Origin: a virus
Strand: one strand, 5' to 3'
DNA: 64,000 bases
Virus record (IMG/VR): IMGVR_UViG_3300027741_000002
Coordinates: 1 to 64,000 of that record
The position numbers and the translations under genes are program-made. Shown here in pieces: positions 10,570-36,694 of this stretch. The notes under the pieces were generated by a model that was not told the origin of the DNA, searched no databases, and saw nothing but the letters and a program-made list of their open reading frames with translations. Positions within the stretch are counted from its first letter, which is position 1; every line of letters begins with the position of its first letter.

Positions 10570-10577
10570 GGAGAAAA

Positions 10578-11251: not shown

Positions 11252-11252
11252 C

Positions 11253-12005: not shown

Positions 12006-12021
12006 ATATTGGTGGGTTGGA

Positions 12022-14508: not shown

Positions 14509-14515
14509 GAGCAAT

Positions 14516-16391: not shown

Positions 16392-16393
16392 AA

Positions 16394-17053
16394 ATGATAA
16401 ATAAAATAATTTGGCAAACATATGAGTCTGAATATGACGAGCTTCCAGATAAGGCTAAAGAGTGTGTTGAATCTTGGAAATCTTTAAATCCAGATTGGGA
16501 ATTTAAATATGTTTCTGGAAAAGAAAGAGCCATATTTGTAGAAGAGCATTTTGGTGAAGAGTGGAAAAATATATACACCTCCTATAAATTAGACGTATTA
16601 AGGTCAGATCTATGGAGGTATATGTGCCTTTATATAAATGGGGGTTTATATACTGATCTTGATATGATTTGTAAAAAACCAATAGAAAGTTGGTTAAAAA
16701 CAGATTCAAAATTTGTTGTTTCTAGCGAACCTAATATATGGGGATATACACAGTCTATTTTTGCATCAGAATCATCTAGTATTTTTTTAAAAGAGCTTTT
16801 AATTAGCATTAAAAACAAGTACTATGAAAATATAACGTATAAAAGCGTAGTTGATTACGAAATAAATGAGGTTGGGTACATAATTTTTACAAATTCAATA
16901 TTAAAAACGTTAGAAAAAACTAAAGAGGGCGTACAAGAGTTTTTAGGTGCGAACTCTTACATTATTCATAAAGAGTCCATACAACATTATCGTGCGGGAA
17001 ATGGAAGTATATTTGGACCGGCTTATAAAGCATGGAAAACAGAGTCATTTTAG
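16394..17053 (+). CDS. Glycosyltransferase family 32 (Och1/Sur1-like, DxD)
   Basis: KIIWQT, W..LNPDW, SDLWRY..LY..GGLYTDLD motifs. Confidence 0.9.
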   Translation: MINKIIWQTYESEYDELPDKAKECVESWKSLNPDWEFKYVSGKERAIFVEEHFGEEWKNIYTSYKLDVLRSDLWRYMCLYINGGLYTDLDMICKKPIESWLKTDSKFVVSSEPNIWGYTQSIFASESSSIFLKELLISIKNKYYENITYKSVVDYEINEVGYIIFTNSILKTLEKTKEGVQEFLGANSYIIHKESIQHYRAGNGSIFGPAYKAWKTESF

Positions 17054-17162
17054 GTTTTTAACGCAAAAAAAATGTGGTATATTTACACCTACAAAACCCC
17101 ATAACAATGAGAGAATGGTCTTATAAAAAGCGCAATAAAAACATAGTAAAGGACATAGATAG

Positions 17163-17456
17163 ATGACAAAGGCAAGAGCAACTGGAACCACTGGTGGAGA
17201 TAAAGGCGCCCTCGTTGTAAGAACAGGGTCTACTACTGCTGCTCCTCTTACAGTGGGCACTGATGGTCAAGTACTGACCGCATCATCTTTATCTACAACA
17301 GGTCTGGAATGGACTACAGTCTCTACTACACCAACTCTTAAACAAGTCTTTACTACATCAGGTAGCACATCCTTACCAGTTGGCTCAAGTTCAAGTCCAG
17401 CAAATGTGTCAGTTATTGTTGTTGGAGGAGGCGGTGGCGGGGGAAGCTGTTTCTAA
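17163..17456 (+). pseudogene. 5' fragment of a glycine-rich virion protein
   Basis: DKG.L.V...L.VGTDGQVLTA.S...GLEW then FTTSG...VIVVGGGGGG, ending abruptly where the glycine-rich domain should begin. Confidence 0.6.
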
Positions 17457-17640
17457 GCAAGCTCGACACGCGATGATCTCTATACCTATCGGTCATCATC
17501 CGCAAGGTGCGTGGGGCGGAAACCCTTACGAGATCCACCACGAGGAAGATTGGTCTACCGAGAGAGTTCTTCAGGCTTTCCCTGGAATCATTGAACATAA
17601 AGAGTTTGACATTACTGGCGTATTTATAGCAAAGTTTTAG
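17443..17640 (+). pseudogene. 3' fragment of an enzyme gene (probable class I methyltransferase C-terminus)
   Basis: EAVSKQARHAMISIPIGHHPQGAWGGNPYEIH.EEDW reads as a protein C-terminus with no start or RBS of its own; it is fused out of frame to the preceding fragment. Confidence 0.45.
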
Positions 17641-17671
17641 TAAGTAAAAGAACACTTTCTAAATATATTCT

Positions 17672-17689
17672 TGATAAGGTATCCACATG
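17672..17689 (+). promoter_or_regulatory. Extended -10 promoter giving a probable leaderless mRNA
   Basis: TG-A-TAAGGT, then 6 nt, then ATG (17687); no SD sequence. Confidence 0.55.
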
Positions 17690-18751
17690 AAAGTTGCCGC
17701 ATACGCCATCTCGTTGAATGAAGAAAAACACGCTGCCCGCTGGGCTGAAACTACAAAGGGTGCGGACTTCCGCCTTGTATGCGACACTGGATCCACAGAC
17801 CGCACCGTTGAGATCCTACGCGAGCACGGCGTGACTGTCTATGAGATTAGCGTCAAGCCTTGGCGCTTTGATGTCGCCCGTAACACCGCACAAAGTCTGC
17901 TGCCTAACGACATAGATGTCTGTTTGAGCTTAGACATGGACGAGCTCGTAGATGAGAACTTCTTTGAGGAAGTTAAGAAGCAGTGGGTAGACGGAGCTAC
18001 AAAAGGTTGGTGTGAGTTTGACACCGGACACGTTTGGTGGGGTTGCCGCCTTCACTCACGACACAAGATGTATTGGAAATATCCAATTCACGAGGTTTTT
18101 GTTCCTTCGCTTGATACGGAAGCTATCAGCTGCCAAATTCACGGAGTTAAGATGTATCACAAGCCTGACGATACAAAATCTCGCGGCCAATACTTGCCTA
18201 TGCTTGTCGCCGCGTCAAAAGAGTTTGGCGAGGATCACCGCATATGGGTTTACCTATGCCGTGAGTATTACTTCTATAGACAATGGGAACTTGTTATTAG
18301 CGCGGCTGAAAAGGTAACTGAGTTTAGTAAAGACTGGTATATCGAACGCGCGGCAGTCTGTCGTTGGGCGTCGGAGGCTTTGCGCAACATCGGCAAGAAG
18401 GAAGAAGCGCACGCCTGGGCAGACAAGGCAATTGAAATTGATCCTTGTGGAGAAAATTACTACGAAAAAGTTCGCTGCTACTACGACTCCGGCGACTGGG
18501 GCGGAGTCTGGGAAACATGTAAGCTTGTCGCCGCATGCGCTAAGACAGATCACTATCTTTCATCCGAGGCGCTATGGCGTTGGCAACTTGACGACATGCG
18601 CGGACTATCTGCACATTATTTAGGTGACAGAGATAAGGCTGTACAATATGGAGAGTTAGCGCTTGCCGGTAACCCTGACGACGAACGTTTAAAGACAAAC
18701 CTAAGATTTTATCGAGCAGGAATTGAGGCACAACTAAATGGAACAGCCTGA
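17687..18751 (+). CDS. Glycosyltransferase family 2 with TPR repeats
   Basis: YAISLNEE, DTGSTD.T, WRFDVARN, LDMDE (DxD) and IHE motifs; helical TPR-like C-terminal half. Confidence 0.88.
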   Translation: MKVAAYAISLNEEKHAARWAETTKGADFRLVCDTGSTDRTVEILREHGVTVYEISVKPWRFDVARNTAQSLLPNDIDVCLSLDMDELVDENFFEEVKKQWVDGATKGWCEFDTGHVWWGCRLHSRHKMYWKYPIHEVFVPSLDTEAISCQIHGVKMYHKPDDTKSRGQYLPMLVAASKEFGEDHRIWVYLCREYYFYRQWELVISAAEKVTEFSKDWYIERAAVCRWASEALRNIGKKEEAHAWADKAIEIDPCGENYYEKVRCYYDSGDWGGVWETCKLVAACAKTDHYLSSEALWRWQLDDMRGLSAHYLGDRDKAVQYGELALAGNPDDERLKTNLRFYRAGIEAQLNGTA

Positions 18752-19601
18752 TGTATTTGTTGCACTTCTTGTAAAGCAAAAGGAAGCGGTACTACCTCTA
18801 TTTCTTGAGTCGCTTGAGGCGTGGGATTACCCTAAGGAAAAATTATTTTTATATATCCGCACAAATAACAACACCGATAATACCCTTCAAATCTTAAATA
18901 ACTGGGTTGAAAAGAACGGGCATCTATATAAGGGTTACAAGTACGAGACTGAAAACGTCGAGCAGGCTGTCGAGCGCTTTAAGCAACACGAGTGGAATGG
19001 CGAACGTTTTAGGGTACTTGCAAAGATTCGCCAGCAAAGTTTTAACGAGTGTCTAGAAACCAACTGCGAATACTACTTTGTAGTTGACGTCGATAACTTT
19101 ATTTTCCCAGAGACGTTGAACGAGCTTATTAAACTTAACCTGCCAATCGTTGCTCCGTTTATTCGCTATGCTGTTGCGTTTGGTGATAACGTAGATGACG
19201 AGGAAACCGCCAAGGAGCGCGAAGGACACCTTGGACAGTATTACGCTAACTACCATCACATCGTAGATGACTACGGTTCAATCGTGGCAAACGATAGCTA
19301 CTACCACATACTGGATCAAAGAGTTAAAGGAATAGTCGAGTGCATGTGTGTTCACTGCACATACCTCATTAAGCGTGAGTATCTTTCAGAGCTTTCATAC
19401 CTAGAGGATTCTGACCGCTGGGAGTACATGGTCTTTTCTAACTCCGCGCGCGATAAGAAAATTACACAATACTTAGATAACAGAACTATCTATGGTATCC
19501 TGACGCTATCAGAAAATGCACGCGCATCGCGTTGGTGGTACGAGTATCTAAAGGATAAGGAAGATAGAGCTGCGGCGTATAAGGATCGCTGGCTACAGTA
19601 G
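18738..19601 (+). CDS. Glycosyltransferase resembling the N-terminal GT-A domain of procollagen galactosyltransferase (COLGALT/PLOD-like)
   Basis: LPLFL..LE.WDYPK.KL.L...TNNN.DNT..IL..W, W..ERF..L.K.RQ, YYF.VDVDNF, IVAP, Y.N and VH.TYLI. Motif order matches COLGALT as recalled. Confidence 0.7.
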   Translation: MEQPDVFVALLVKQKEAVLPLFLESLEAWDYPKEKLFLYIRTNNNTDNTLQILNNWVEKNGHLYKGYKYETENVEQAVERFKQHEWNGERFRVLAKIRQQSFNECLETNCEYYFVVDVDNFIFPETLNELIKLNLPIVAPFIRYAVAFGDNVDDEETAKEREGHLGQYYANYHHIVDDYGSIVANDSYYHILDQRVKGIVECMCVHCTYLIKREYLSELSYLEDSDRWEYMVFSNSARDKKITQYLDNRTIYGILTLSENARASRWWYEYLKDKEDRAAAYKDRWLQ

Positions 19602-20111
19602 AGGTTTTCCCTTCTTAGGCTTCTTTTTCTTTTCCTTGTCGCGCTCGCTCTTTGCTAATTTTTCCTCGCGTTGAACATGATATGCATCAACCGCATTTGC
19701 ACTTGTTCGTGAGCGCCAGGTAAAATCACAAGCCTCACATTGAACAAGACGCATTGTTGCCCAACGCCCTCCGCCTGGAACGTCTAAAACTAATGTCTTA
19801 AGTTTATTTGGTCGTGCATTACAAAATGGACACTGCGGAAAACGTTGACGTCGAGATTCCTGCCCGTTCCATGATACGGAAAGTGTGCGACGAATTTCTC
19901 CTTCGTCCTTTCCTCCCCAGATACCCCAGATCTGCTTATGCTCTAACGCCCACTTTAAGCATTCTTTTCTTACAGGACATGAGAAGCAAAGATTCTTTGC
20001 TTGATATTTTTCTGCAGGCTCAGATGAAAAGAAGAAGTCCTTAAACTCGTCGTTTACCTGTTGCCCACATGCAGAATCTTTTTGCCAGCCTAAGTCTAAC
20101 GATCCGCTCAT
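19593..20111 (-). CDS. whiB: WhiB family transcription factor with C-terminal Zn-ribbon extension
   Basis: W...AC...FF...AK.LC..CPVR.EC..WAL...WGIWGG; extra CPFC...CEAC and a Lys-rich tail. Confidence 0.9.
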   Translation of the reverse strand: MSGSLDLGWQKDSACGQQVNDEFKDFFFSSEPAEKYQAKNLCFSCPVRKECLKWALEHKQIWGIWGGKDEGEIRRTLSVSWNGQESRRQRFPQCPFCNARPNKLKTLVLDVPGGGRWATMRLVQCEACDFTWRSRTSANAVDAYHVQREEKLAKSERDKEKKKKPKKGKPLL

Positions 20112-20452
20112 TCTGCGACTACCTCAACCCATGTAACAGGAGTTAGGTTGTCTACACCGTCGCCTTCGCGTGTTTCGCCATCTTCATCACATGCTGTTAA
20201 CTCGTTGTCGCCATCTACTTCTCCCGCATAGCCATAGTTAATCAATGAAGAATCAAGATACTTAAATCCGTTGCCTAATGACACGGATACACCGTCACGC
20301 TGGAGGGCAGATGCCAATGCGCGACGAATAAGCTCGTTCTCTAGATCTACATGATCCTCTGTGAAGAAGGTAACCGAATAGTCGTGAAGAGGCTCGTAGC
20401 CTTCACCCGTCCATTCCTTCCACAAAAGCTCACCTATACGTGAGTCTTTCAC
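20108..20452 (-). CDS. Hypothetical acidic protein
   Basis: 114-aa ORF with GTG start and AAGGGG SD; overlaps whiB start (ATGA). Confidence 0.6.
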   Translation of the reverse strand: MKDSRIGELLWKEWTGEGYEPLHDYSVTFFTEDHVDLENELIRRALASALQRDGVSVSLGNGFKYLDSSLINYGYAGEVDGDNELTACDEDGETREGDGVDNLTPVTWVEVVAE

Positions 20453-20591
20453 AATTCCCCTTAGCGTGCTGTCGTTAAGGGAATATTACACTACAAGGTA
20501 GATGTTTGCGCGGATAAACGCAGATTATTTTTAAGTAATAAATTACCTCAGGATAGGTATGAAAGTGTCTCTAAGAGTCACTGAGCAATGC

Positions 20592-21119
20592 CTACATATT
20601 GTTGTAGGTGCCTAGTTGCAGGACACCGTTGACGTCAGGCCATAGATATTGATAATACTCAGGGCGATAACCTTTATCCTCTGGCCAGCCAAACTGTGAG
20701 TACCACTCGTAGTCCTTACGCAGTAGCGCAACCCTGTGGGTAGATGCGATTTGCTCGTATGTGTCTTTATCCTTAAACCAGTAAGGGAATGTTAGCTCGT
20801 CGCTGATGCGATCTAGCTCAAGCGCGCGAGTTAATGTTCCTTGAATCTTAGGAATCATCGTAGATTTGTAACCGCGCTTAAGCCACTCGTCACACATTGT
20901 AGTTGCGTATAAGGCTAGGGCTTTTTCGTGGCCTTCCCACATCTTCGCCGCAGGGTGATTGCGCCAGCCTTTAGGGTCACGGTGCTCGCCTTGTGGATTT
21001 AGCGAGGTAAGGACAAGCATAAGCTGCCATGCCTCAAGTACCTGTTTGTTAAGGCGCTTGTTATCTAGCTCCTGAGCAATACGCTCAAAGGAGTCAGTTT
21101 GTGGTACAAATGTTTGCAT
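20592..21119 (-). CDS. Pyrimidine-dimer DNA glycosylase / endonuclease V-like (MSMEG_6728 family)
   Basis: MQTF.P...LD.KRL.KQ..E..Q, GW.NHPA..MW.G.E, W..RGY and H...LLRKD...Y motifs. Confidence 0.8.
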   Translation of the reverse strand: MQTFVPQTDSFERIAQELDNKRLNKQVLEAWQLMLVLTSLNPQGEHRDPKGWRNHPAAKMWEGHEKALALYATTMCDEWLKRGYKSTMIPKIQGTLTRALELDRISDELTFPYWFKDKDTYEQIASTHRVALLRKDYEWYSQFGWPEDKGYRPEYYQYLWPDVNGVLQLGTYNNM

Positions 21120-21133
21120 GTATTCGTCCGTTC

Positions 21134-21154
21134 GTCATTGTGTAAATTATAACA
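21134..21154 (-). promoter_or_regulatory. Extended -10 promoter (TG-T-TATAAT-N6-AATGAC)
   Basis: Consensus extended -10 upstream of 21119; member of a repeated promoter family (see findings). Confidence 0.7.
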
Positions 21155-21158
21155 GGAA

Positions 21159-21458
21159 CTATAGCTCGTCGGGCTTAGGCTCCTCCTGTGCCGGTTCTTC
21201 CTCAAGTTCTTCCTCTAAGTCTAGCCCATCAAGTTCACTGGATGAGACATATATTCCAACAACGGTTAGACGGCCACATATGTAGCAATCGCCAACTGCA
21301 CCAGGGGATAGCTCGATGGGTATGGTGACGTTAATAAGACGGGTAATGATGTTGCCGTTGATATCAACGCTGTCAGCTTCCCACAAACTGTTTTCTTCAA
21401 TCCAACAGCGCTCGCAGACTGGCACGGGATCACTATCATACGTGCGCAGATTTCTCAT
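21159..21458 (-). CDS. Hypothetical Zn-finger-like protein (CxxC...CxxC, acidic tail)
   Basis: CERC and CYIC; coupled to the upstream gene (TAATG). Confidence 0.55.
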   Translation of the reverse strand: MRNLRTYDSDPVPVCERCWIEENSLWEADSVDINGNIITRLINVTIPIELSPGAVGDCYICGRLTVVGIYVSSSELDGLDLEEELEEEPAQEEPKPDEL

Positions 21459-22720
21459 TAACTAGCAGTCTCCATAGGGCTACTGTACCACTTTTTCTTA
21501 GCGTAGTGTCTAGAGAATCCCTTATCTGCGTCGATAAGATATTCACGATCTCCGATTAACTCTGCGTCTGGTCCTTGTGGATTCCCATCAAGTGAATCCT
21601 TAACAGCATTTCCAAGCCAGTTGGCAGCCTGCACTGGAACAGCCTTTCCCCATACAGCCGCAAGAAGTGAGTAGTCGCGTGCAGCTTCAATATTCCAATC
21701 ATCAGGAAGTCCCTGCATACGAGCAGATTCTCGATGTGTAATAAGTCGTGGCTGCGTCGGGTGAACAACGTGATCTAGCGCGGAGCCAGTCAATACGTTA
21801 CACCAGTGATCTTCTTTCCAACGATACGGCTGTGAAAACCCTAGCTTAAAGTTATTACGAATAACGCGAGGAGAAATGTCAATCCATTTTTGCGGAAACT
21901 TACCGTCGTTTAAGTCTACCGCTTTCTTTAGCGCTTGCCCAGTGTCGCCATTTCCTTCCCAGCCGTCATTTCCGATGATACTAAAGATCTCTTCAATGCG
22001 CTGCGCATGAATATTTGTTTTACCGATGTGACCGTCAACCATTCCGTCCTTTGTGCGTAGATGCTTAACCCACTTAGAAGGAGCAGGCGCGGTGTACTTT
22101 TGCTTGTTCCATGTCTGAGGCATCTCCGCAAGATCACCGATGATGTCCATAATGCGTGGAAGTTCTTTTGGCTCGGTAATCGGAGTTGAAAACTTAAGCC
22201 CTGATTCAACTGCTACCCAGAAGTAGCGAGGACGATACGAAAATCCACCAACCTGTAGGTTGTTTTCTTTAACGTGGTATAGGTCATACTTTTTACCTGA
22301 GATCTGTTCAACCATGTCGCGATACTTAACCATTACATCGCGTCCCTGTGTATACGCCTGTTGAACACACTCAAAAACAATAGCGCGTGGTTTCACTCGT
22401 CCTGCGTATTTCATAAAGGCTACGGTGTGCTCGTGCGCCTTAGAGTCAGGTCCACGATTTGCTGGGCCAGACCATACGGACCAACCAGAGCAGGGAGGAC
22501 AGCCCATAACTATGTCTGCTTTTTGCACGCGCCATTCGTTAGGATCATCTGAAAATTCTGCTGTCCAGTCATCTCCAAGAAGATGACGGTTGTTATCTGC
22601 GACAGCATTTCCAAAGTTTAATGTTCCAGTGCGTTGAATCATCTTCATGTCATTTTGCACAAAGCCGAGACTCATGAACGCGGCAAGGCCGTTGCAGTCA
22701 ATAAAGGTATGTTGTGACAA
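21458..22720 (-). CDS. C5-cytosine DNA methyltransferase-like protein with atypical cofactor-binding motifs
   Basis: Motif IV GCPPCSGWS, VI FECV, VIII SYRPRYF and IX R.ITHRE.AR.QG.PD are present. Motif I reads DCNGLAAF and motif X reads GKAVP. Confidence 0.82.
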   Translation of the reverse strand: MSQHTFIDCNGLAAFMSLGFVQNDMKMIQRTGTLNFGNAVADNNRHLLGDDWTAEFSDDPNEWRVQKADIVMGCPPCSGWSVWSGPANRGPDSKAHEHTVAFMKYAGRVKPRAIVFECVQQAYTQGRDVMVKYRDMVEQISGKKYDLYHVKENNLQVGGFSYRPRYFWVAVESGLKFSTPITEPKELPRIMDIIGDLAEMPQTWNKQKYTAPAPSKWVKHLRTKDGMVDGHIGKTNIHAQRIEEIFSIIGNDGWEGNGDTGQALKKAVDLNDGKFPQKWIDISPRVIRNNFKLGFSQPYRWKEDHWCNVLTGSALDHVVHPTQPRLITHRESARMQGLPDDWNIEAARDYSLLAAVWGKAVPVQAANWLGNAVKDSLDGNPQGPDAELIGDREYLIDADKGFSRHYAKKKWYSSPMETAS

Positions 22721-22784
22721 GGCTTAGCCCTTCGTAGTTCCTAGGGTAGGACCTTATACCGACATCTTACTTACCGCGCGTTAT

Positions 22785-23105
22785 TTACGCAGAAAGATTA
22801 GCGTTCTTTTCTAGCTCCAACATACCTACCTCATACCCGCAACCCGCGTATCCCGCGATGTCAATCCAAGTGTCTCCCTGGAACCCAGACTTGTTTGCGT
22901 AGCGTGCAACCTTTAACCCGACCATCATCATTGCAACGTCTTCGGTAGATATATCGACTCCAAGAATCATTGACCATACCTTCGATATACGTGCAAAGTT
23001 TTCCTCAGGTCTTCCGTATTGCGCGTCCCTATCACCTGCAATTATTTTTGCGGCCTCGCGTAAAGCCTCAACGCGATACTGAACTACTGCATCATTTTCT
23101 GTCAT
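22785..23105 (-). CDS. DUF6378-like phage protein (nucleotide-metabolism associated)
   Basis: L.EA..II.GDR..QYG.P..NF.RI...W...DVA.MM..LK.AR...D.W.DIAGY pattern. Confidence 0.75.
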   Translation of the reverse strand: MTENDAVVQYRVEALREAAKIIAGDRDAQYGRPEENFARISKVWSMILGVDISTEDVAMMMVGLKVARYANKSGFQGDTWIDIAGYAGCGYEVGMLELEKNANLSA

Positions 23106-23305
23106 TTGTCTTCTACCTTCGTGCGAATAGTGATGATCCCTGTAAGTATGTTGCCGTCATCAAGTTTATCCTTGATCTGCAACTCTGAGTCCGTAGGCAA
23201 GGTTGCGCTTTCGTCACCGCAAAAATCTTGCCAACGCTTCTTAGCACCTTCCATAATCTCAGTTAAGGTAGATCCTGTAATGTAGAACTCAACTGTAGAT
23301 CTCAT
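23102..23305 (-). CDS. Hypothetical protein
   Basis: 67-aa ORF translationally coupled on both sides. Confidence 0.55.
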   Translation of the reverse strand: MRSTVEFYITGSTLTEIMEGAKKRWQDFCGDESATLPTDSELQIKDKLDDGNILTGIITIRTKVEDK

Positions 23306-23724
23306 TATTGAACTTTCTTCTGAAGTTGATAAGGCGCGTAGTGTGAGCCATCAAGTACAGGCTGCTTGTCGTCATTAGACTTAAAGATAATATCGCCATA
23401 GCGAATTCCAACAACCTTACCTCTGCGTCCGTTATGCATCGCACCAGTAGATCCTTGATATGCGTCAAGTTTTACGCGTACCTGATCTCCAACAGTAATC
23501 GCTCCTGGTTGTGCGTCAACCCATATCTCATTAGCAACCTCTGGTGTTATAGCGTAGCCAAGTGCAAGTTGGTTAAATAGCGCTAATACCTCTTTTTGCT
23601 GAGGATTAGATAACTTCAAAGGTTCCCACGCGGAAAGAAGTTTTAGTAGTGCATTTCCAACTCCTACCTTAACCTTTGCCTCCTGCATTTGTTCTTTAAT
23701 CCACTCTTTGTTAATCTCAGGCAC
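23305..23724 (-). CDS. Hypothetical protein with SH3/KOW-like C-terminus
   Basis: VGDQVRVK...HNGRRGKVVGIRYGD; coupled to neighbours. Confidence 0.55.
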   Translation of the reverse strand: MPEINKEWIKEQMQEAKVKVGVGNALLKLLSAWEPLKLSNPQQKEVLALFNQLALGYAITPEVANEIWVDAQPGAITVGDQVRVKLDAYQGSTGAMHNGRRGKVVGIRYGDIIFKSNDDKQPVLDGSHYAPYQLQKKVQ

Positions 23725-24202
23725 TGTAATCTACCTCCTTAGGCAAACATTTAGCACACATATCCGGGCTTGCGCCGCGGCCGACGTCATCAATTGCGCG
23801 CTGACATAGAGTACACTTTACTCCTACGTCCTTAACCTTGTACCCATTAAGCTGGCGTTCCTTGTTGCGTTCCATCTTTTCAAGATAGAACTTATCGAGC
23901 ATCTCGTCAGTTCCGCCCGCCGCAACGATGATATTTGCGACAAAGTGCAAGACGTCAACAGCCTCCTTGATGATCTCTTCACGATCTGCGTATGGAGCAT
24001 CATGTTGCCAAGGCTTCCACGATATTGCCTGACGCATCTCTGCAAGTTCGTCATCGATGGCGAGCATGTTCCAACGCATATACTCAACTAGACGACGAAT
24101 ATTTTGAGGCTTATCGCCTTCCATTTCTTCATAGTTAATAAAGTACACATCTTTTTGTAGATCACGTGTACGTCTTAACCAGTTATTGAACAAGATAGAC
24201 AT
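23717..24202 (-). CDS. All-alpha (dimeric) dUTPase/dCTPase, MazG-like superfamily
   Basis: DELAEM...WKPW...EEIIKEAVDVLHF...Y.EK..RN..RQ..GY; C-terminal CxxC...CxxC. Confidence 0.82.
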   Translation of the reverse strand: MSILFNNWLRRTRDLQKDVYFINYEEMEGDKPQNIRRLVEYMRWNMLAIDDELAEMRQAISWKPWQHDAPYADREEIIKEAVDVLHFVANIIVAAGGTDEMLDKFYLEKMERNKERQLNGYKVKDVGVKCTLCQRAIDDVGRGASPDMCAKCLPKEVDYSA

Positions 24203-25229
24203 TGGTTTGCTCTTTTCTCGTAAATAAACCTAACGCCTGTGTTAGGTTTATGGTTGCTTCTCTTCGTGTAGGAATGCTCGCTAGATACGTCTTACGTTGT
24301 TCTAGTGCAAGCGTAGTACGCTCCTCCTGGGACATACTTTCAATACTTGAGGCAAGATGCGTCCAGGAAGACCCAAGAATACTACTTTCTTTCCAGTCTG
24401 TAGCGATTGCAGTTAATGCGTTCATGCATTGAGCGTATCTATAACTCCACCACGTGCTTGAAGAATACGGTGGAATAAGAGCGCCTATGCTAGCTGCAAT
24501 TTGTACATCAACCTGCGCGTCGCTCCATGACTTGTTCCACTTCATAGGGACAGTAGGATTTGACAATGTAGCCGTAGTTGTTTTAACCCATCGCGTAGAG
24601 TAATTTTCCACTGCCCACTTATCACGACGCTCTGTCTCAATCATGTCCTGTGTTGAGATTAAAAATGAATCTAAGTTAATTGCCTTAAGAGAATCACGCG
24701 CTCCTTCAGGTAAAAGATTTGCAACGTGCTCTTCCTCGTTTGTCCATGGCAATGACGGATACAACGTTACAGGCCAAGGCTTTGTGAGAAGGTCCTCTAT
24801 TACCTCTATAAGGTTATTAAGCATGTTCGATTCCGACGCGTGGCTAAATCCCTTGCGGTACGAGTAAAAAGGCTTGGTGAGGTTGTCAGGCGTCTTAACC
24901 ATTGCGCGTAGGCTTGCAGTAATCTTTGCAGGCTCTGGCGCGTCAATAAATAGATGCAGCTTAGGTGAATCAAGCAGCACATCCATAACACTTAACGCAC
25001 CATAGACATGATTTGCACTTAAACTTGTAATAGGGCTGATGCCGACAAGTACCGCGTCGTATTGTTCAAGATCCTTTGTGTTCCAGGATACCTCTGGGTT
25101 TTCCTGAATAACCTCGTGACCTTGTTGTTCAAGAACACGTCTCATTACTCCGGCAAAAGATAACGAGCGCAGGTTAGCCTTCTCTGACGCATGAGATGCA
25201 GTCATACCTGTGATAAGAATTTTACTCAT
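24183..25229 (-). CDS. Putative GT-B-fold glycosyltransferase-like protein (paralogue of 25226..26443)
   Basis: KILITGMTA...L...GHEV...DL..YDAVLV N-terminus; C-terminal GALIPPY..TWWSYRY......TD parallels its neighbour. Confidence 0.5.
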   Translation of the reverse strand: MSKILITGMTASHASEKANLRSLSFAGVMRRVLEQQGHEVIQENPEVSWNTKDLEQYDAVLVGISPITSLSANHVYGALSVMDVLLDSPKLHLFIDAPEPAKITASLRAMVKTPDNLTKPFYSYRKGFSHASESNMLNNLIEVIEDLLTKPWPVTLYPSLPWTNEEEHVANLLPEGARDSLKAINLDSFLISTQDMIETERRDKWAVENYSTRWVKTTTATLSNPTVPMKWNKSWSDAQVDVQIAASIGALIPPYSSSTWWSYRYAQCMNALTAIATDWKESSILGSSWTHLASSIESMSQEERTTLALEQRKTYLASIPTRREATINLTQALGLFTRKEQTNVYLVQ

Positions 25230-26443
25230 ACGAGAGTACCGTCTGCATTTCTTGCTATGCCTTTATCTTCTGCAACTGCACGCTTAATGATACGGTCACA
25301 GTGTTCAACAAATGCGGAGTATTCTGGTAAATATGGAGCAAGAGCGGCGCGTTGCGCCATTGCTGCTTCATGCAATTGCGTGTCTGTCATCTTTTCAACA
25401 TCAGGAATCTTTAACTTATACGCATCACCTAATGGATCGCCCTCACCCTTATCGGTTACAAGAATAGAGCCGACATGCGCTGCGTAGAGGAAACGTGAGC
25501 GCCACCAACCAGAACCAGCGTGTGGATACGGTGGAGAAAGAATTCCCCAGTGCTTGTTGTAAAATTCAAGTACATCTTGTTCGGTATCAAAACGTTGGCC
25601 GCCAAGCTTCTTAATAAGTTTACGACTGCCTACAATTTCTACATGCCAATCAGGATTTTTTCTTTCAAGCCAGGTGTCATGTGGCATAAGAGCTCCAAGA
25701 ACCCAAGCCTTTTTCTTGTGCTCTGGCTGAAGCGCAGTTACTGGTTGAAGTGTTGGAATTACAGTTGATGTTGGGTCAAGAGCTTCAATAGGTCCTAGCT
25801 CAACAGGCATGCGCTTGCGCACGATAGATCTATCACCGAAAGAATACATAGGACAAACTGGAACCATACCTGCAGTCCAACGATCTGCTATGAGATCACG
25901 TGCTGCCTCTACTAAACGTTTTTCATAAGGCTGAACGTTCTCGTCTGTATCCATCATGTAGTAACGTTCAACGTAGCACTTCTTAGCGGCCGCCGGGTTT
26001 AATTCTCTGACACGCTCGAGAGCTGCGTCAATATCTGCACGACTAAAGTAAGTTGCGCCTTCGTCACCGCGATGTTCAGTTCCTACAAGTAGATGCTTAT
26101 ACAACATCTCTGGTTTACGAATTAAAGCGCGAGCGCCGTTAAATACTGTATTTGTTTGCCAATCATCAAAGAATCCTACGCAAGGCAAGCCTGATGATAA
26201 AACGTATAGCGCACCCATAGCGCCTTGACGTCCGTTAAGTGAGTTTAACGGTGCAAGGTTTACCCACGCTGCATCATAAGACGACAGATCCTCGCCAGGA
26301 GTAACCTTGCGCCAATCAACATCGTGACCAGCTTCTCGTAATGCTTTGACGATAGAAGCAGGCACGTCAATTTTTTGGATTGTGCGCTTCTCAGTGTTAA
26401 TCTGGAGCGCAGTAAAACCCGTAACGATTATCTTCATACCCAC
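25226..26443 (-). CDS. Putative GT-B-fold (DNA) glycosyltransferase
   Basis: KIIVTGFTA...LREAGHDVDW...YD, FFDDW, and C-terminal Y...WGILSPPY..AGSGWWRSRF..A...GSILVTD resembling a GT-B donor-binding region. Confidence 0.55.
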   Translation of the reverse strand: MGMKIIVTGFTALQINTEKRTIQKIDVPASIVKALREAGHDVDWRKVTPGEDLSSYDAAWVNLAPLNSLNGRQGAMGALYVLSSGLPCVGFFDDWQTNTVFNGARALIRKPEMLYKHLLVGTEHRGDEGATYFSRADIDAALERVRELNPAAAKKCYVERYYMMDTDENVQPYEKRLVEAARDLIADRWTAGMVPVCPMYSFGDRSIVRKRMPVELGPIEALDPTSTVIPTLQPVTALQPEHKKKAWVLGALMPHDTWLERKNPDWHVEIVGSRKLIKKLGGQRFDTEQDVLEFYNKHWGILSPPYPHAGSGWWRSRFLYAAHVGSILVTDKGEGDPLGDAYKLKIPDVEKMTDTQLHEAAMAQRAALAPYLPEYSAFVEHCDRIIKRAVAEDKGIARNADGTLV

Positions 26444-31357: not shown

Positions 31358-33180
31358 TAGTACTTCTCTCCCCAGTTCTCCATAGGACCATCAATGCCTG
31401 CTGTAAGTGGAACTGCCCACCCTTCGGTAGTAGTCATACATTCCTTAACAATGCGTTTGATTTCATCAACGTCCTTACGTGGCGCGTTGAGAACAATTTC
31501 ATCGTGTACAGGAACGATAAGAAGTTCGGTTAAGTCTGCCTGATCTAGTTTTACAAGATTTGCCTTAAAGATCTCAGCCGCGCCTCCCTGAGCTAGATAG
31601 TTAAGCAGCGTGTAAACTCGATCTTCATCGCAAGGAAGCCTGCGACCTGTCCAGGTATAAACATACCCTTGGCCTTCTGCTTTAAGACGACGCATTCCAA
31701 CGTCTTCAATTTTCTGCTGGAATCCAGTCATGCCAGGGAAACGCGCATCAAATTGGTTAACTACAGTCTTCATAATGCTCTCGGGAACTCCTGCGGTAAG
31801 CGCTTGTTTTGCGACGCCTGCGCCGTAGAGACGACCGTAAATCATTCCTTTTATAAGACCTCGTCGCTTGTCTGAACGCTGGAAGTTTGGATCGCTGTAT
31901 ACTTCTTTTCCAATTTCAGTAAACGGATCTGAGCCAGTAAGGTCTGCCTGATGAAACATACCGATAAGGTTTGGATCTCCTGTAAGAGAAGCCACCATTC
32001 GAAACTCTACCTGATCTAAATCTGAGGTAACAATGACGTGGTCATCATCCTTAGGAATAAACGCACGGCGGACAACGTCGTCGCCCTTAGGCAATGTCTG
32101 TAGCGCTGGGTTTTGGATAGACATGCGAGACGTGCGAGCGCCAAGCGTTTTTACAGATGGGTGCACAAATCCATTAACGTTATCATTAAGGAAGTTAGCA
32201 AAGTATGTGTTAGCAAGTTTATCTGCCTTACGTTGCTTTAACACAATCTCGGCTAAAGCCTTTACCTCGTCATTGCCTTCAATGGTAAGCAGCTTAAGTT
32301 GATCTTTTGAAGCTGATTTTTGTCCTGAAGGCGTAAATTCGTTAATCTCTGCGCCAAGTGATTCTAGCAAGCGCACTAGTTGAAGGTTACTGCCGATAGA
32401 GACGCCGTTGTATTTTTCTTTAGCCCAAGTCTTAACTGAGCCTGCGTACTCTGTTAGCTCATCAAACTTCTTTTTAGAGTAATCAAGGTCGATACGTGCG
32501 CCGTTAATTTCCATACGGGTAACAATGCGACGTGTTGCCATTTCTAGCTCGTATGCCTGGTTGTACACACCGCCAGGGCCACATTTTTCATAAAACTTTT
32601 CCCATAAGCGCATAGTCAAGATGCAGTCTAAGGCGCCGTATGCCCAGTAAGGCTGAAAGTTAGTAGGAACAGTTCCCCACGTCCAGCCGTTAGTTGCTAG
32701 CTCTGTATCTAATGTATCCTGCAATGCAACCGCACGCCCATCGACATATAAAGCTGCAAGACGTTTTAATGCGCCAACACCAAGTGGATCAATGATGTGT
32801 GCCATAATCATAGTGTCGTGCGCACGGTGCCAAGGCAATTTCCAACGTGATTGAATGTCAAACCATCGTGCCTCGAACGCAATGTTATGACAAACGATTT
32901 GTCCATCAAACTTATCCATAGCTTGATAGAACGCGCCAGCCCACTCGTCCCACGCCATTGCCCATGCCTGTTGCCCATCGCCAACCTGCACTAAACGTAA
33001 GCGTCCATGCCAAGGAGATAAAGCGTCCTTACGATCTTGTCCTGGATACTCTCCAGTTTCAGTATCAATCGCAATCGCATCGTGAGGACGTCGCTCACCA
33101 AGCCAGGTTAGAAACTCGCCTGCCTTTTCAACGCTATCTACGAGGTGAAGTTGTACGTCACCTAATCCTTCAACTGTCAT
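31357..33180 (-). CDS. polA: DNA polymerase family A (3'-5' exonuclease + polymerase, no 5'-3' exonuclease)
   Basis: ExoI AIDTET, ExoII HNIAFE, motif A SDLDQVEFR, motif B R...K...YG..YG and motif C VHDEI. Confidence 0.95.
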   Translation of the reverse strand: MTVEGLGDVQLHLVDSVEKAGEFLTWLGERRPHDAIAIDTETGEYPGQDRKDALSPWHGRLRLVQVGDGQQAWAMAWDEWAGAFYQAMDKFDGQIVCHNIAFEARWFDIQSRWKLPWHRAHDTMIMAHIIDPLGVGALKRLAALYVDGRAVALQDTLDTELATNGWTWGTVPTNFQPYWAYGALDCILTMRLWEKFYEKCGPGGVYNQAYELEMATRRIVTRMEINGARIDLDYSKKKFDELTEYAGSVKTWAKEKYNGVSIGSNLQLVRLLESLGAEINEFTPSGQKSASKDQLKLLTIEGNDEVKALAEIVLKQRKADKLANTYFANFLNDNVNGFVHPSVKTLGARTSRMSIQNPALQTLPKGDDVVRRAFIPKDDDHVIVTSDLDQVEFRMVASLTGDPNLIGMFHQADLTGSDPFTEIGKEVYSDPNFQRSDKRRGLIKGMIYGRLYGAGVAKQALTAGVPESIMKTVVNQFDARFPGMTGFQQKIEDVGMRRLKAEGQGYVYTWTGRRLPCDEDRVYTLLNYLAQGGAAEIFKANLVKLDQADLTELLIVPVHDEIVLNAPRKDVDEIKRIVKECMTTTEGWAVPLTAGIDGPMENWGEKY

Positions 33181-33649
33181 TTACGTCCTCTGTTATTACT
33201 ACCTCGATGTTGCATTTCTTAAAATAATCTACAGTTGCATCCGGCAAACGATGAGCCGACCGCTCTCCAATACGCATAACGACACGAGTAATTCCAGAGT
33301 TAGAGATTAACTTAGCGCACTGATAGCATGCTGCATCTGTTATGTATATGGTACCACCTTCTACGCGAGAACGGTCAACGTATAACAACGCGTTAGACTC
33401 CGCGTGAATCGACGGGCACGAATCATATGTGTTATCGAGTGCAGTTACGCCTTGCGCGCGGGGGCACCAGTCTATACAGTCTCCTTCAACGGGAAACAAA
33501 GCTGCAGGGCCATTGTACCCAGTCGAGCTTATACGTTGGTCCTTAGACACAACAACAGCTCCAATGTGAGCACGACTGCAGCGAGATCTTTGCGCGATTG
33601 CATCTGCAACCTGCATCCAGACCTCGTCCCAAGAAGGGCGATTACTCAT
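33170..33649 (-). CDS. dCMP deaminase
   Basis: RPSWDE..M..A...A.RS.C, GYNG, HAE.NA and CxxC motifs. Confidence 0.92.
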   Translation of the reverse strand: MSNRPSWDEVWMQVADAIAQRSRCSRAHIGAVVVSKDQRISSTGYNGPAALFPVEGDCIDWCPRAQGVTALDNTYDSCPSIHAESNALLYVDRSRVEGGTIYITDAACYQCAKLISNSGITRVVMRIGERSAHRLPDATVDYFKKCNIEVVITEDVNDS

Positions 33650-33809: not shown

Positions 33810-34845
33810 TGCGTTCTCCTTTCTGGTTTGCCCATAGCCGATCACATTTGTTTATATATTTATTTGTAATTGAGACTGCAAACTCTATTGCCTCAGATGA
33901 TATTCTGTACATCACATTATGGTGTTCTGGAGCAAGTATTTTCCCCCAGTAAGGAACCAGCTTATCAACTAGAGGCTTAAAGCTGTCAGAGAACGAGTTG
34001 TCACGAACAAGAAGAGGGTTGTCATCTCCAGGCTTCATCTGAAGTCTATCCCACATCTGTGCGATATCTTCTTCTGGTGTTATTGTTTTTGCGAATACTC
34101 TATTTGCAAAGTTGTTGTTAATTCTTTCGTGTACTTCCTTACGCGCCTTAAACCTCTTAAGACTTGTGTAAGGTAGATGACATATTAACCAATCTTCCTT
34201 ATTAGACGCGGCAACAGTTGTATCCCATAACTCCCAGAACTTGCCGTCGCCATATTTAAGTTGATGCTGTCCTGCATCAACAAAGTCACCGGAGTTGTTT
34301 TTTACCAGGATCTTTGAGGGAACCCTAAACTCGTGAAGAAGTTTCTCGTTTCTCTTAACCTGCTCGTGGAACTCGTCACGATCTCCTACGTGATTTACAG
34401 ACGTCACATAGTGATCTACAAGCTGGTAATCATCTAGTCTAGTGTCAATAAATCCTGCAGGTACTATGTAGTTTTCTAGCTGCATAGCTATGGCATTCCA
34501 TTTTTCACCTAGATTAGATAAAAGATCCTCTATATCTTTGTCGGTAGGGCTAACTAAAAACTCGTCCGCGTCGAAGATAAAGTTCCAGTCAGGATTTTCT
34601 TGATTACTGATATGTAGAAGAATATTAGTTAAGGCTTCCTGGTCAAATAGGTTATCCTCATATCTAAATACCTCTATCTGATCCGGCCAAACCTTTTGCA
34701 GCTCGGCAAGACCATTTTTTGTGTCGTCGGTGCTGGAGTGGTCAATAACAAAAACTTTATCAACATGGTAAAAAAGCGCATGTGAGATAGAGAGACCCAA
34801 CAAAGGCCACTCGTTTCTTGCTACGACTACTCCATGAATTTTCAT
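33802..34845 (-). CDS. Glycosyltransferase family 2-like (GT-A)
   Basis: RNE, IDHSSTD.T, FDQ, FDADEF (DxD), K...G.H and H.P motifs. Confidence 0.82.
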   Translation of the reverse strand: MKIHGVVVARNEWPLLGLSISHALFYHVDKVFVIDHSSTDDTKNGLAELQKVWPDQIEVFRYEDNLFDQEALTNILLHISNQENPDWNFIFDADEFLVSPTDKDIEDLLSNLGEKWNAIAMQLENYIVPAGFIDTRLDDYQLVDHYVTSVNHVGDRDEFHEQVKRNEKLLHEFRVPSKILVKNNSGDFVDAGQHQLKYGDGKFWELWDTTVAASNKEDWLICHLPYTSLKRFKARKEVHERINNNFANRVFAKTITPEEDIAQMWDRLQMKPGDDNPLLVRDNSFSDSFKPLVDKLVPYWGKILAPEHHNVMYRISSEAIEFAVSITNKYINKCDRLWANQKGERSE

Positions 34846-35693
34846 TTTTTATTGACTGCCTTAATCATGGCGTTTGCATACCACTGCTCGAAATGGTGAA
34901 GGCCGTACAGAAGAGCTTTTTCCTCGTGATGAATTGCTGCAGTTAGTGCGTCCATGGCAAAGTTTGAAACTTCTCCCCAAGAGTTGCCCACTATCGCAGG
35001 GATCTTTTCGTACGGAACGTACGTATGCTTTAGACTTTCTGCAGAGTCGTAGTGTTGCTCGTAGATATGAAGAGATCCGACGTGATGGTGATACGTTCCT
35101 GGCTCGATGCCCAGGATAGATGCTATAGCAAGTTGAACGCGGGTAAACTGGAAGAAGTCATACGCCGCTCCTAGCCATACGTCATTTGAACGCATGTACA
35201 CGCTCATGTTAAGTTTGTTGTTGCGAATTCTAAATTGATGCAGGATAGTGCACGGGTAATCTCGCTTATTTGCAAGAAGATCTAGCTCCGGATTCCAAAT
35301 CGTAACGACCGCCTGTCGTGTATCTGGGTCTGCCTTAAGTCTTTCAACTATAGGAGCATACTGTGACTGTGTGCGAATTCCATATGCTCCGTGAAATAGT
35401 CCGTTGTCCTCGGTATAGTTAGCAAACTGTGGGCCGATGGCAATAACAAGTTTAGGTGTGCTTGCACCTGCGATAAGCTGGCAAGCCTCAACCGCACCGA
35501 TACCTGGAACAGTTCCACGTCCTACACCTAAAGGTAAGGTGTTATACACGTCTTCAATGCGAATAATCGCATCCTCAATCTCGCGGGTCTTCATACCGCG
35601 AGGAGCTGCCTCCTTGCCATACTTAAGAACGTGCTGAACAAGGTCAACGTATCCGTTAACTCCGTCAGGTATATTGATTATCGCAGTATCCAT
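34842..35693 (-). CDS. Thymidylate-synthase-superfamily enzyme of the dCMP hydroxymethylase type
   Basis: PRG..T, YG.R, D.DTRQAV, PCT, MRSND.WLG..YD (Asp at the ThyA Asn177 position) and GSLHIY. Confidence 0.85.
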   Translation of the reverse strand: MDTAIINIPDGVNGYVDLVQHVLKYGKEAAPRGMKTREIEDAIIRIEDVYNTLPLGVGRGTVPGIGAVEACQLIAGASTPKLVIAIGPQFANYTEDNGLFHGAYGIRTQSQYAPIVERLKADPDTRQAVVTIWNPELDLLANKRDYPCTILHQFRIRNNKLNMSVYMRSNDVWLGAAYDFFQFTRVQLAIASILGIEPGTYHHHVGSLHIYEQHYDSAESLKHTYVPYEKIPAIVGNSWGEVSNFAMDALTAAIHHEEKALLYGLHHFEQWYANAMIKAVNKK

Positions 35694-36694
35694 TGATCAT
35701 CCCTATCTTTTTTGTTAGATAAACGTGTAATAGCTTCGCCGTACTCTTCTTTTCTTGAGTTAAAGAACCGTCGCACATATTGCGGGTGAGATGTAACGGT
35801 ATACATGTAGTCTGGAATGTTTGCGTTACGTAACCCGCGCTCTGCAAGACGCCCTAGTGCAAGTATAGGAGGTCTGCGTAGAGTAGCCCACAGATCATCA
35901 AAACGCTCTGCGGACATGTCATTGATGTTGACAATACCCATCGTCTTCCATGCGTCAGACTCTAGCGCGGTAAGTAGAAATTCGCCAGAGTTTCCATCAA
36001 CAGGCATAAATGGCAGGATAGTTTCCTCGCCGTATTTCTTAGTGATGTTTCTTGTATCTCCTACAAGTAACACGCGTGGAAATCTTTGTCCGATGTACTC
36101 TGGAAATTTTACCAGTGCCCTTGCGTCCTCCTGAAATACCTCGGCGCGACTGATTACATGCGAGGCAAGTTTTGGTATCTCTTCAATTGAATCAGGGGAG
36201 GGTGTTAGACGCGCGGCAAGTCCTGCAGAGTTTGCAGCAGCGGTATGATACAGCTCTAAGATTTGTTCGAGCTCATTTGCCTGTATGTAATCGTCACCGC
36301 GAGTGTTAAGACGACGAGTAATAACATCAAGAGGTTGATACAACCAAAATTGAGCTACACCGCGGGATTTAAGAAAGAGCTCTGTCCAACGCCACCCTGC
36401 AACACCAAGTAAACCGTATCCGTCGCCAGAACCAGTCTCAGGACGTTTAACAGCGGCATATGTTACCTCGCCCCAGTGCCAACGGTCTGCAACCGCAATA
36501 CGTTGAGACCAATCTACCTTTTCAATAGACGTAACGTAGTCGTATAAAACCCATCGACGCGACATCTCTTCTGGCTTAGACTTATGGTAGAACTCGATTT
36601 CCTGCTTAGGAAATTTGTCAGTAAGTTGTTTTTGTATCTCAGACACAAGGGTAGATTTACCTGAGGCGTCTGTACCTTCAACTACTATAAACAT
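35678..36694 (-). CDS. dNMP (thymidylate-kinase-like) kinase fused to a uracil-DNA-glycosylase-like domain
   Basis: N-terminal IVVEGTDASGKST, DRW..GE..Y, RL..RGD. C-terminal YIG...VLLVGD...PF...GNSG.FL...N...ALG..A...HPQY. Confidence 0.75.
   Translation of the reverse strand: MFIVVEGTDASGKSTLVSEIQKQLTDKFPKQEIEFYHKSKPEEMSRRWVLYDYVTSIEKVDWSQRIAVADRWHWGEVTYAAVKRPETGSGDGYGLLGVAGWRWTELFLKSRGVAQFWLYQPLDVITRRLNTRGDDYIQANELEQILELYHTAAANSAGLAARLTPSPDSIEEIPKLASHVISRAEVFQEDARALVKFPEYIGQRFPRVLLVGDTRNITKKYGEETILPFMPVDGNSGEFLLTALESDAWKTMGIVNINDMSAERFDDLWATLRRPPILALGRLAERGLRNANIPDYMYTVTSHPQYVRRFFNSRKEEYGEAITRLSNKKDRDDQWILR

Follow-up and report, generated by a model that had tools for sequence, protein, structure and literature searches.

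A lysine-type family of phage enzymes with the DNA cytosine-C5 methyltransferase fold, a rebuilt donor pocket and a link to a predicted 5-hydroxymethylcytosine pathway

The window analyzed here is a stretch of 64,000 nucleotides (positions 1 to 64,000) of the IMG/VR virus record IMGVR_UViG_3300027741_000002, which is complete at 129,506 bp and has direct terminal repeats, and the minus strand of the window encodes a protein, P0001, with the fold of a DNA cytosine-C5 methyltransferase (C5-MTase). We find that P0001 is a member of a phage-restricted branch of this fold in which a lysine, Lys359, occupies the position of the motif X asparagine, and that the rebuilt donor pocket of this branch is under strong purifying selection and is not decaying. 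P0001 is probably not an ordinary S-adenosylmethionine (AdoMet or SAM) methylase. Its gene belongs to a conserved module that also holds GT-B-like or sugar-nucleotide genes and a MazG-like gene, and the same phage encodes a predicted synthase of 5-hydroxymethyl-dCMP (5hmdCMP). We tentatively propose that P0001 carries out a non-methyl covalent chemistry on phage DNA of the 5-hydroxymethylcytosine (5hmC) type.

The gene carries the sequence GAAGGG 7 nt 5' of its start codon. P0001 matches the Pfam profile PF00145 (C-5 cytosine DNA methylase) with an E-value of 1.5e-18 and 67.8 bits, above the cut-off of 22; the alignment is limited to profile positions 58-322 and, because it begins only at position 58, leaves the motif I-III part of the protein unrecognized. 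Against the NCBIfam model dcm (TIGR00675), P0001 scores 34.4 bits, relative to a cut-off of 100.65. An AlphaFold2 model calculated from 101 sequences is of high confidence (predicted local distance difference test score, pLDDT, 95.6; predicted TM-score, pTM, 0.93), and a Foldseek search with this model returns C5-MTases only, with the best matches to DNMT1 (E = 3.4e-20), MET1, ZMET2, 3G7U of prophage CP-933R (TMt 0.76) and M.HaeIII (TMt 0.71-0.72). The overall fold, i.e., a catalytic domain plus a target-recognition domain (TRD), is thus that of a C5-MTase. The canonical enzymes M.HaeIII (1DCT), M.HhaI, 3G7U and DNMT1/MET1 share with P0001 this fold, the order of the motifs, motifs IV, VIII and IX, the motif VI Glu and a large TRD, but lack the conserved C-terminal β-hairpin that follows motif X in the P0001 family; in the model its strands span residues 387-390 and 393-397, and M.HaeIII has no counterpart. 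P0001 further differs from these enzymes in that FxGxG of motif I reads NGLAA, the Glu of motif II is Gly, PPCQ reads PPCS, ENV reads ECV, and GN of motif X reads GK.

An earlier note on this stretch, made from its letters alone, had described the catalytic motifs as intact, motif I as altered, the acidic residue of motif II as not evident and the asparagine of motif X as replaced by lysine, and each of these statements holds up. Cys77 of PPC, Glu117 of FECV and the Arg163/Arg165 pair, by which enzymes of this fold attack a flipped-out cytosine covalently, are all in place, and the coordinates that the note gives for the codon of Lys359, AAG, are exact (Table 1). Three alignments agree on the register of the lysine: phmmer sets GKAVPV of P0001 on GNAVPV of M.HaeIII 1DCT, a family profile searched against the Protein Data Bank (PDB) likewise sets Lys359 on the motif X Asn of M.HaeIII, 3G7U and MET1, and hhalign sets it on Arg350 of SpCmoX, the CmoX protein of Synechococcus phage S-B43 (probability 98.4%, E = 5.7e-15, 305 columns; the SpCmoX sequence used for comparison is that from MN018232). 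In the family-profile and CmoX alignments, the motif I Phe (CmoX Phe25) becomes Asn10 and the first Gly of GxG becomes Leu12, the Glu and Phe of motif II (CmoX Glu47 and Phe48) become Gly32 and Thr33, and P0001 has no counterpart to the stretch of CmoX that holds Asp69, the motif III Asp. P0001 therefore lacks both the FxGxG of motif I and the acidic residue of motif II, which bind the adenosine and ribose of AdoMet, as well as the Asn of GN(A/S)V in motif X and the Gln that follows PC, for which it has Lys359 and Ser78. This serine faces Gln in M.HaeIII, 3G7U and DNMT1, while CmoX reads PPCS too. Both positions that flank the transferred group are consequently altered, since Ser78 stands for Gln82 of M.HhaI and Lys359 for Asn304; according to PMC3526304, Gln82, Tyr254 and Asn304 of M.HhaI crowd extended transferable groups, and the Q82A substitution lowers methylation by ~16-fold.

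These replacements are conserved. The best 120 of the 307 proteins found at E ≤ 1e-5, 61-95% identical to P0001, were aligned with the query (n = 121), and Trp357, Gly358, Lys359, Ala360 and Val361 are unchanged in 121/121, as are Arg30, Gly32, Phe36 and Gly37; Asp8, Asn10, Gly11 and Leu12 are found in all 110 ungapped close homologues, and the rebuilt N-terminus as a whole is conserved to the same degree as the rest of the protein. A scan of 1.84 billion cluster representatives gives 809 matches at E ≤ 0.001 and 140 at E ≤ 1e-30. A wider set (n = 128) comprises the query and 127 of 150 listed representatives, with 23 sequences under 330 residues left out. In it Lys occupies the motif X position of 122 sequences and Arg that of 3, so that the homologue survey proposed in the earlier note finds the lysine invariant among close relatives and a cationic residue in 125/128 overall. 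The Cys77 column holds Cys in 119/128 (gaps in 7, another residue in 2) and the Ser78 column Ser in 105/128; the residue preceding PPC is Cys in P0001 (CPPC) and mostly Asn in the family (NPPC). The motif VI Glu is present in 127/128, followed at the Asn site by Ser in 120 and Cys in 5. The motif I Phe column is mostly Gln, His, Asn or Glu, and position 30 is basic in 107/128.

The ratio of nonsynonymous to synonymous substitution rates (dN/dS) is consistent with strong constraint. For 25 loci chosen from 80, 24 pairs were computed, of which 16 were saturated and not used; the 8 unsaturated pairs give dN/dS of 0.029-0.056 for the whole gene and 0.011-0.072 for the first, N-terminal 64 codons, and an internal stop occurs in 0/25 of the relatives examined, the one stop that was flagged being the natural stop codon. 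Together with the conservation of the motif I-II region, these values indicate that the rebuilt pocket is real, as the earlier note had it, and relaxed selection is not seen. Among distant members, mean pairwise identity is 37% in the cofactor half and 38% in motifs IX-X, and the TRD is alignable throughout the family at a mean identity of 27%. The TRDs of restriction-modification methylases are not known to be alignable in this way.

A second line of evidence comes from the thymidylate-synthase (TS) homologue of the window, which has Asp at the positions of Leu143 and Asn177 of E. coli ThyA and keeps Asp169. In ThyA numbering, PMC13326640 reports N177D as the mark of a dCMP substrate, L143D/E as that of hydroxymethyl rather than methyl transfer, and D169N as that of the 5-hydroxy-dCMP synthases; this residue signature predicts a 5hmdCMP synthase, not a thymidylate or 5-hydroxy-dCMP synthase. 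The remark in the earlier note that plain C5 methylation would be odd beside a dCMP hydroxymethylase is in keeping with this signature. A TS homologue is present in 20 of the 21 records with a member of the P0001 family, namely the genome of the window phage, 3/3 named phages, 13/14 records and 3/3 records farther removed, in which motif X of the enzyme is ARGV or SKGV; the sole miss is a fragment estimated to be 28% complete, and all 7 metagenomic records that are at least 90% complete have the gene. Asp143, Asp169 and Asp177 occur in 19/19 of the TS homologues inspected. From this signature and the gene content, we infer that the phage DNA contains (glycosyl-)5hmC in place of cytosine, with little or no cytosine left that carries hydrogen at C5 (C5-H). 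With C5 predicted to be occupied, P0001 would therefore not be an ordinary methylase acting on C5-H.

The gene content resembles that of the T4-type hmC system, with a TS homologue carrying L143D and N177D, a MazG-like nucleoside triphosphate (NTP) pyrophosphohydrolase, a kinase, a dCMP deaminase and GT-B-like proteins, and differs from it in the C5-MTase-fold gene that is conserved in the module; to our knowledge, T4 has no component of this fold. The P-loop kinase-like protein next to the TS homologue is a candidate hmdCMP kinase, and the MazG-like protein a candidate dCTPase. The 348- and 405-residue paralogues lie upstream of the enzyme gene. The model of the longer one is of low confidence (pLDDT 63.7) and resembles GT-B enzymes, among which T4 β-glucosyltransferase 1qkj has the highest TM-score (0.47/0.53), and the protein language-model look-alikes include T4-Gluco-transf clusters (score 0.96). 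On these grounds both are candidate DNA hmC glycosyltransferases, which we regard as leads only.

The family looks, by its sequence matches, to be confined to phages. At E ≤ 1e-5, 15 of 50,697 phage records match, and all are actinophages: 13 Gordonia phage records (a count that includes both GenBank and RefSeq copies), Micrococcus phage Kurnik, and Actinomycetia phage DSL-LC01, with a homologue of 66% identity in a locus syntenic with the window. The next phage match outside the family has an E-value of 1e-9, compared to 1e-59 or better within it. A DNA pattern for motif IV, which covers part of the family only, occurs at 55 places in a collection of one genome for each of 185,579 species, and 1 of the 55 is a family member; this single member from the species genomes is located in the same module of phage type, on a 17.5-kb contig from a metagenome-assembled genome. 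A megablast search of window positions 20000-26000 against phages gave no match, the family members P0160 and P0248 used as queries found no relatives among viral contigs, and the WhiB protein of the window found none among genome contigs. Our literature searches, which did not cover the supplementary tables and networks of PMC12783734, found no published paper on the lysine-type family.

Several members are fused to other domains. P0248 is joined to the helical domain of a 5-hydroxymethyldeoxyuridine (5-hmdU) DNA kinase (HMUDK; E = 5e-40), which links the fold to hydroxymethyl-pyrimidine hypermodification. FkbM-like class I methyltransferase domains are fused in P0142, P0160 and P0164, and UbiG-like ones in P0192, P0197 and P0223. 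In P0249, ~330 additional residues separate the second Pro of PPC from the Cys; the insertion ends in ...VVHN followed by CSGF and by its sequence looks like an intein that splits the active site. On the viral contig L104, at about 10001-11469, the family gene reads as two open reading frames (ORFs) of 91 and 324 residues, which could reflect a frameshift, a sequencing error or a split gene.

How might such an enzyme act on 5hmC? In the mechanism we propose, Cys77 would add to C6 of 5hmC-type DNA to give an enamine, from which the C5-CH2-O substituent could be eliminated or exchanged by an exocyclic-methylene or a retro-aldol route. Lys359 would serve as an acid/base, or as an anchor for an anionic leaving or incoming group in the rebuilt former SAM pocket. 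A more specific version, which we consider doubtful, is that 5hmC is rewritten in the DNA: the hydroxymethyl or glycosyl-oxymethyl group would be lost or exchanged, and an anionic partner that Lys359 and Lys/Arg30 bind in what was once the SAM pocket, perhaps an amino acid or a small acid of the keto or aldehyde type, would be installed to give a new, sequence-specific hypermodified cytosine. The chemistry has a parallel in the AdoMet-independent side reactions of C5-MTases, in which, as reported in PMC7176277, an engineered form of M.SssI joins thiols to 5hmC and M.HhaI uses formaldehyde to hydroxymethylate GCGC sites. These reactions share with the proposal covalent Cys-C6 catalysis at C5, but they are laboratory reactions of ordinary methylases, and for P0001 such a reaction is only proposed.

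A number of observations weigh against the proposed chemistry on 5hmC. The reactions of C5-MTases with 5hmC are slow side reactions in vitro, and we know of no natural enzyme that rewrites 5hmC with this fold. The presence of 5hmC in the phage DNA is itself read from a residue signature and gene content, and all the records share one replication module (helicase, PD-(D/E)XK, AAA_24) and may represent one old lineage; the association with the TS homologue is accordingly old and stable, not a set of independent events. The HMUDK fusion is known from one cluster representative only, the genome of the window phage has no HMUDK_hel domain, and the kinase next to the TS homologue shows no similarity to the HMUDK-like part of P0248. 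With no HMUDK domain and an unrelated kinase, phosphorylated hmC as a source of a leaving group is unsupported here, and we set this route aside. The FkbM- and UbiG-like fusions could be ordinary multi-methylase fusions. Finally, the motif II Glu is kept in 77/128 of the wider set, most of which also has a Gly-rich loop; the wider family looks less eroded on alignment, and the sub-branch of P0001 has lost both features. A motif II Glu and a Gly-rich loop suggest a nucleoside-type cofactor, and hence group transfer rather than cofactor-free chemistry.

The best-surviving alternative is that P0001 transfers a carboxymethyl or other anionic group from carboxy-SAM (Cx-SAM) or another sulfonium donor to C5 of residual cytosines in the manner of CmoX, with Lys359 in the role of Arg350. 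5-Carboxymethylcytosine is a natural base, made by the CmoX of phage S-B43 from Cx-SAM supplied by a phage CmoA; in the 1.9-Å structure of CmoX (8YF3), Arg350 replaces Asn304 of M.HhaI and contacts the carboxymethyl group, and the wild-type enzyme accepts Cx-SAM only and refuses SAM, while R350N accepts neither (PMC12783734). The cationic residue and the PPCS of P0001 align with those of SpCmoX, both proteins have the C5-MTase fold, and both are phage-encoded; SpCmoX serves DNA hypermodification, as P0001 probably does. The M.MpeI N374K variant that the earlier note had cited as a precedent is borne out by PMC13288465, which reports that it uses Cx-SAM, that a cationic residue at the homologous site also converts M.CviPI, and that such a residue at the motif X site is a general way to make carboxymethyltransferases from methyltransferases. 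These variants share with P0001 a Lys or other cationic residue at the motif X Asn position, but they differ from canonical enzymes at one site only and still bind an adenosyl cofactor, whereas in P0001 the cofactor half is rebuilt as a whole, by a natural and ancient change. The frequent retention of the motif II Glu in the wider family is compatible with such a donor, and the fused O-methyltransferase-like domains could conceivably esterify the carboxylate.

A source of the donor is not found. The absence of a CmoA-like synthase from the window, as recorded in the earlier note, extends to the complete 129.5-kb genome, in which TIGR00740 finds no match at E ≤ 1, and CmoA is found in 0/17 records of related phages at E ≤ 0.01; the same search scores the biochemically validated S-B43 CmoA at 2.5e-34 and 115.6 bits. 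On the host side, CmoA occurs in 0/5 named actinobacterial genomes at E ≤ 1e-5, and among 301 genomes sampled from Actinomycetes, the class of one of those five, none attains the cut-off, with scores of 94-163 bits in 3 and weak generic matches in another 32 (a tally that includes an unpublished genome, at 25.7 bits). Candidates for the missing partners were also rejected. The fused class I methyltransferase domains score as FkbM- or UbiG-like, not as CmoA. A role like that of CmoY, the asparagine-synthase-type ligase, was dropped after none was found in the phage genome (0/1, with no Asn_synthase match). In DSL-LC01 (OQ999401), an extra 170-residue ORF at 11428-11940, labelled 'class I SAM-dependent methyltransferase', lies directly upstream of the enzyme gene; it has no Pfam or NCBIfam match and is not present in the window, where a 64-bp spacer (22721-22784) takes its place, and a CmoA-like role was discarded on these two counts. 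The SpCmoX gene, in contrast, lies beside those for CmoA and the ligase; the partners of P0001 are hmC-pathway genes.

The proteins differ as well. SpCmoX keeps Phe25, Glu47/Phe48, Asp69 and ENV where P0001 has Asn10, Gly32/Thr33, no aligned partner and ECV, so that the adenosine contacts of Cx-SAM are replaced, and P0001 has Lys359 rather than Arg and CPPC rather than SPPC. The two share 23% identity, which is not specially close, and in the PDB profile search the family scores M.HaeIII at 99.9 bits, 3G7U at 89.9, MET1 at about 89, M.HhaI at 77.6 and 8YF3 at only 66.7. As 8YF3 ranks below all of these, the cationic residue and PPCS look convergent with CmoX, not inherited. The CmoX census selected for an SPPC motif and Arg350 (PMC12783734), and a lysine-type family would therefore not have been counted. 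As C5 should moreover be taken already in the DNA of the phage itself, we regard a CmoX-like transfer as unlikely, and the specific carboxy-SAM reading of the earlier note is not sustained; its broader suggestion of non-methyl transfer or action on hmC fares better, given the rebuilt pocket and the TS signature, and action on hmC appears to fit the context best.

Decidedly unlikely, in our view, is an ordinary AdoMet-dependent 5-methylcytosine (5mC) methyltransferase that tolerates unusual motifs and acts on residual phage cytosines or on host DNA. P0001 does pass the PF00145 cut-off, its catalytic motifs are intact, its structural matches are C5-MTases throughout, and homologues are named 'site-specific DNA-cytosine methylase' in databases. 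However, the Phe and Gly of motif I and the Glu of motif II are replaced, the motif III Asp is unaligned, and the score against dcm is far below the cut-off. CmoX, cationic at the same position, refuses SAM, and loss of Gln82 by itself is reported to impair M.HhaI. The strict co-occurrence with a predicted 5hmdCMP synthase and a TRD that is alignable family-wide, unlike those known from restriction-modification enzymes, point away from this reading as well. A pathway that couples methylation to oxidation was also considered. The phage cytosine methyltransferases coupled to TET/5mYOX enzymes, as described in PMC8256090, have a TET/JBP partner, and the genome of the window phage has none by score: the only Tet_JBP match scores 16.9-17.2 bits, where the cut-off is 34.9, and falls in an ORF of the 2OG-FeII_Oxy_3 type, so the coupled pathway was rejected. 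That ORF, outside the window at about 100467-101096, encodes a 209-residue 2OG-Fe(II) oxygenase (2OG-FeII_Oxy_3, 3.1e-12).

P0001 might instead be directed at the host, acting on unmodified host cytosine by covalent adduct formation, deamination or marking while the phage's own hmC DNA is immune; in function this would parallel the shut-off of host DNA by T-even phages, which is specific for cytosine. The residues for covalent attack are kept while the donor pocket is altered, the co-occurring hmC pathway would provide self/non-self discrimination, and a DenV-like glycosylase is encoded two genes away in the window phage and in DSL-LC01. This reading does not explain why the rebuilt pocket and Lys359 are so strictly conserved, the glycosylase is a neighbour in 2/18 loci only (the window and DSL-LC01), and there is no precedent; we consider it very unlikely. 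That P0001 is a decaying or purely structural relic, as its eroded SAM motifs might suggest, is hardly credible given the selection analysis, the nearly invariant catalytic residues, the confidently predicted fold and the uninterrupted reading frames of its relatives.

The action on hmC-type DNA that we tentatively favour draws on the gene neighbourhood, which was compared in 18 loci, one from the window, 4 from named phages and 13 from viral contigs (30-50% identity). The minus-strand neighbours in the window are the WhiB protein, the DenV-like glycosylase, the enzyme gene, a DUF6378 protein, the MazG-like protein and the two paralogues (Table 1). In 14/18 loci, one of the three ORFs next upstream of the enzyme gene is a member of the same MazG-like cluster, and in 9/18 it is the immediate neighbour; the Kurnik record has one more MazG-like neighbour by its own annotation. 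Farther upstream, across loci, are GT-B-like genes, an NTP-transferase and an NAD-dependent epimerase. In the window, the paralogues are followed on the same strand by a recombination and replication block (DUF669, AAA_24, PD-(D/E)XK, SNF2 helicase, PolA), past which lie, also on that strand, the dCMP deaminase, a GT2 glycosyltransferase, the TS homologue and the P-loop kinase. PHROG relatives of the DUF6378 protein are labelled 'phosphofructokinase', which looks like a propagated misannotation. The WhiB protein and the named relatives suggest an actinobacterial host. Elsewhere in the window, at about 10000-18000, a plus-strand gene block has a G+C content of 0.31-0.40, compared to about 0.45-0.50 in the rest, and may be a horizontally acquired island.

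Table 1. Features of P0001 and of the surrounding genes, with positions in the 64,000-nucleotide window.
Feature	Position	Strand	Basis or remark
WhiB protein and DenV-like pyrimidine-dimer glycosylase	19593..21119	-	Same strand as the enzyme gene
T4 endonuclease V-like pyrimidine-dimer DNA glycosylase	20592-21119	-	PF03013, 2e-20; two genes downstream of the enzyme gene
Lysine-type C5-methyltransferase-fold protein P0001	21458..22720	-	420 aa, TTG start
Family-specific C-terminal β-hairpin past motif X (...LIGDREYLID...)	21527..21565	-	Close family and consensus GExIGDRExLID
Lys359, codon AAG, at the motif X Asn position (HhaI Asn304, SpCmoX Arg350)	21644..21646	-	Alignments and homologue counts
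Motif VIII, Arg163-x-Arg165	22226..22234	-	Arg163 in 125/128, Arg165 in 128/128
Motif VI, Glu117-Cys118 (ECV for ENV)	22367..22372	-	Glu117 at 22370-22372; most of the family ESV
Motif IV, PPCS, with catalytic Cys77 and Ser78 (HhaI Gln82 position)	22487..22498	-	PPC is residues 75-77, 22490-22498
Rebuilt motif I-II region, residues 8-38: DCNGLAAFMSLGF ... RTGTLNFGN	22607..22699	-	Homologue conservation; HaeIII and CmoX alignment
DUF6378 protein	22785-23105	-	2.9e-29; directly upstream of the enzyme gene
MazG-like, all-alpha dUTPase_2 nucleotide pyrophosphohydrolase	23717..24202	-	PF08761, 3.3e-11
Two paralogous GT-B-like proteins, 348 and 405 aa	24183..26443	-	No Pfam match
dCMP deaminase	33170..33649	-	PF00383, 9.7e-19
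Thymidylate-synthase homologue	34842..35693	-	PF00303, 3.2e-26; best solved relative is the CMP hydroxymethylase MilA
P-loop nucleotide-kinase-like protein beside the TS homologue	35678..36694	-	Weak AAA_18 and dNK matches; phrog_761 'thymidylate kinase', 5e-13

C5-MTases belong to the most thoroughly understood of the enzymes that modify DNA. Natural departures from methyl transfer among C5-MTases were unrecorded before CmoX (2025), and in the lysine-type family described here a cationic residue next to the transferred group has evolved a second time, independently. For this branch, in contrast to CmoX, we could find no carboxy-SAM supply, and it is tied to a predicted pathway of hmC formation and glycosylation. 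If 5hmC is indeed rewritten, it would be the first natural use of the 'atypical' C5-MTase reactions known from test tubes. The possible returns include a DNA base new to science in actinophages that abound in freshwater and soil, an account of how such phages evade restriction, and a new enzyme for the site-specific labelling or reading of 5hmC. Cultured relatives exist in Gordonia phages GMA2 (with Orf51 as the enzyme), Phendrix and GodonK and in Micrococcus phage Kurnik.

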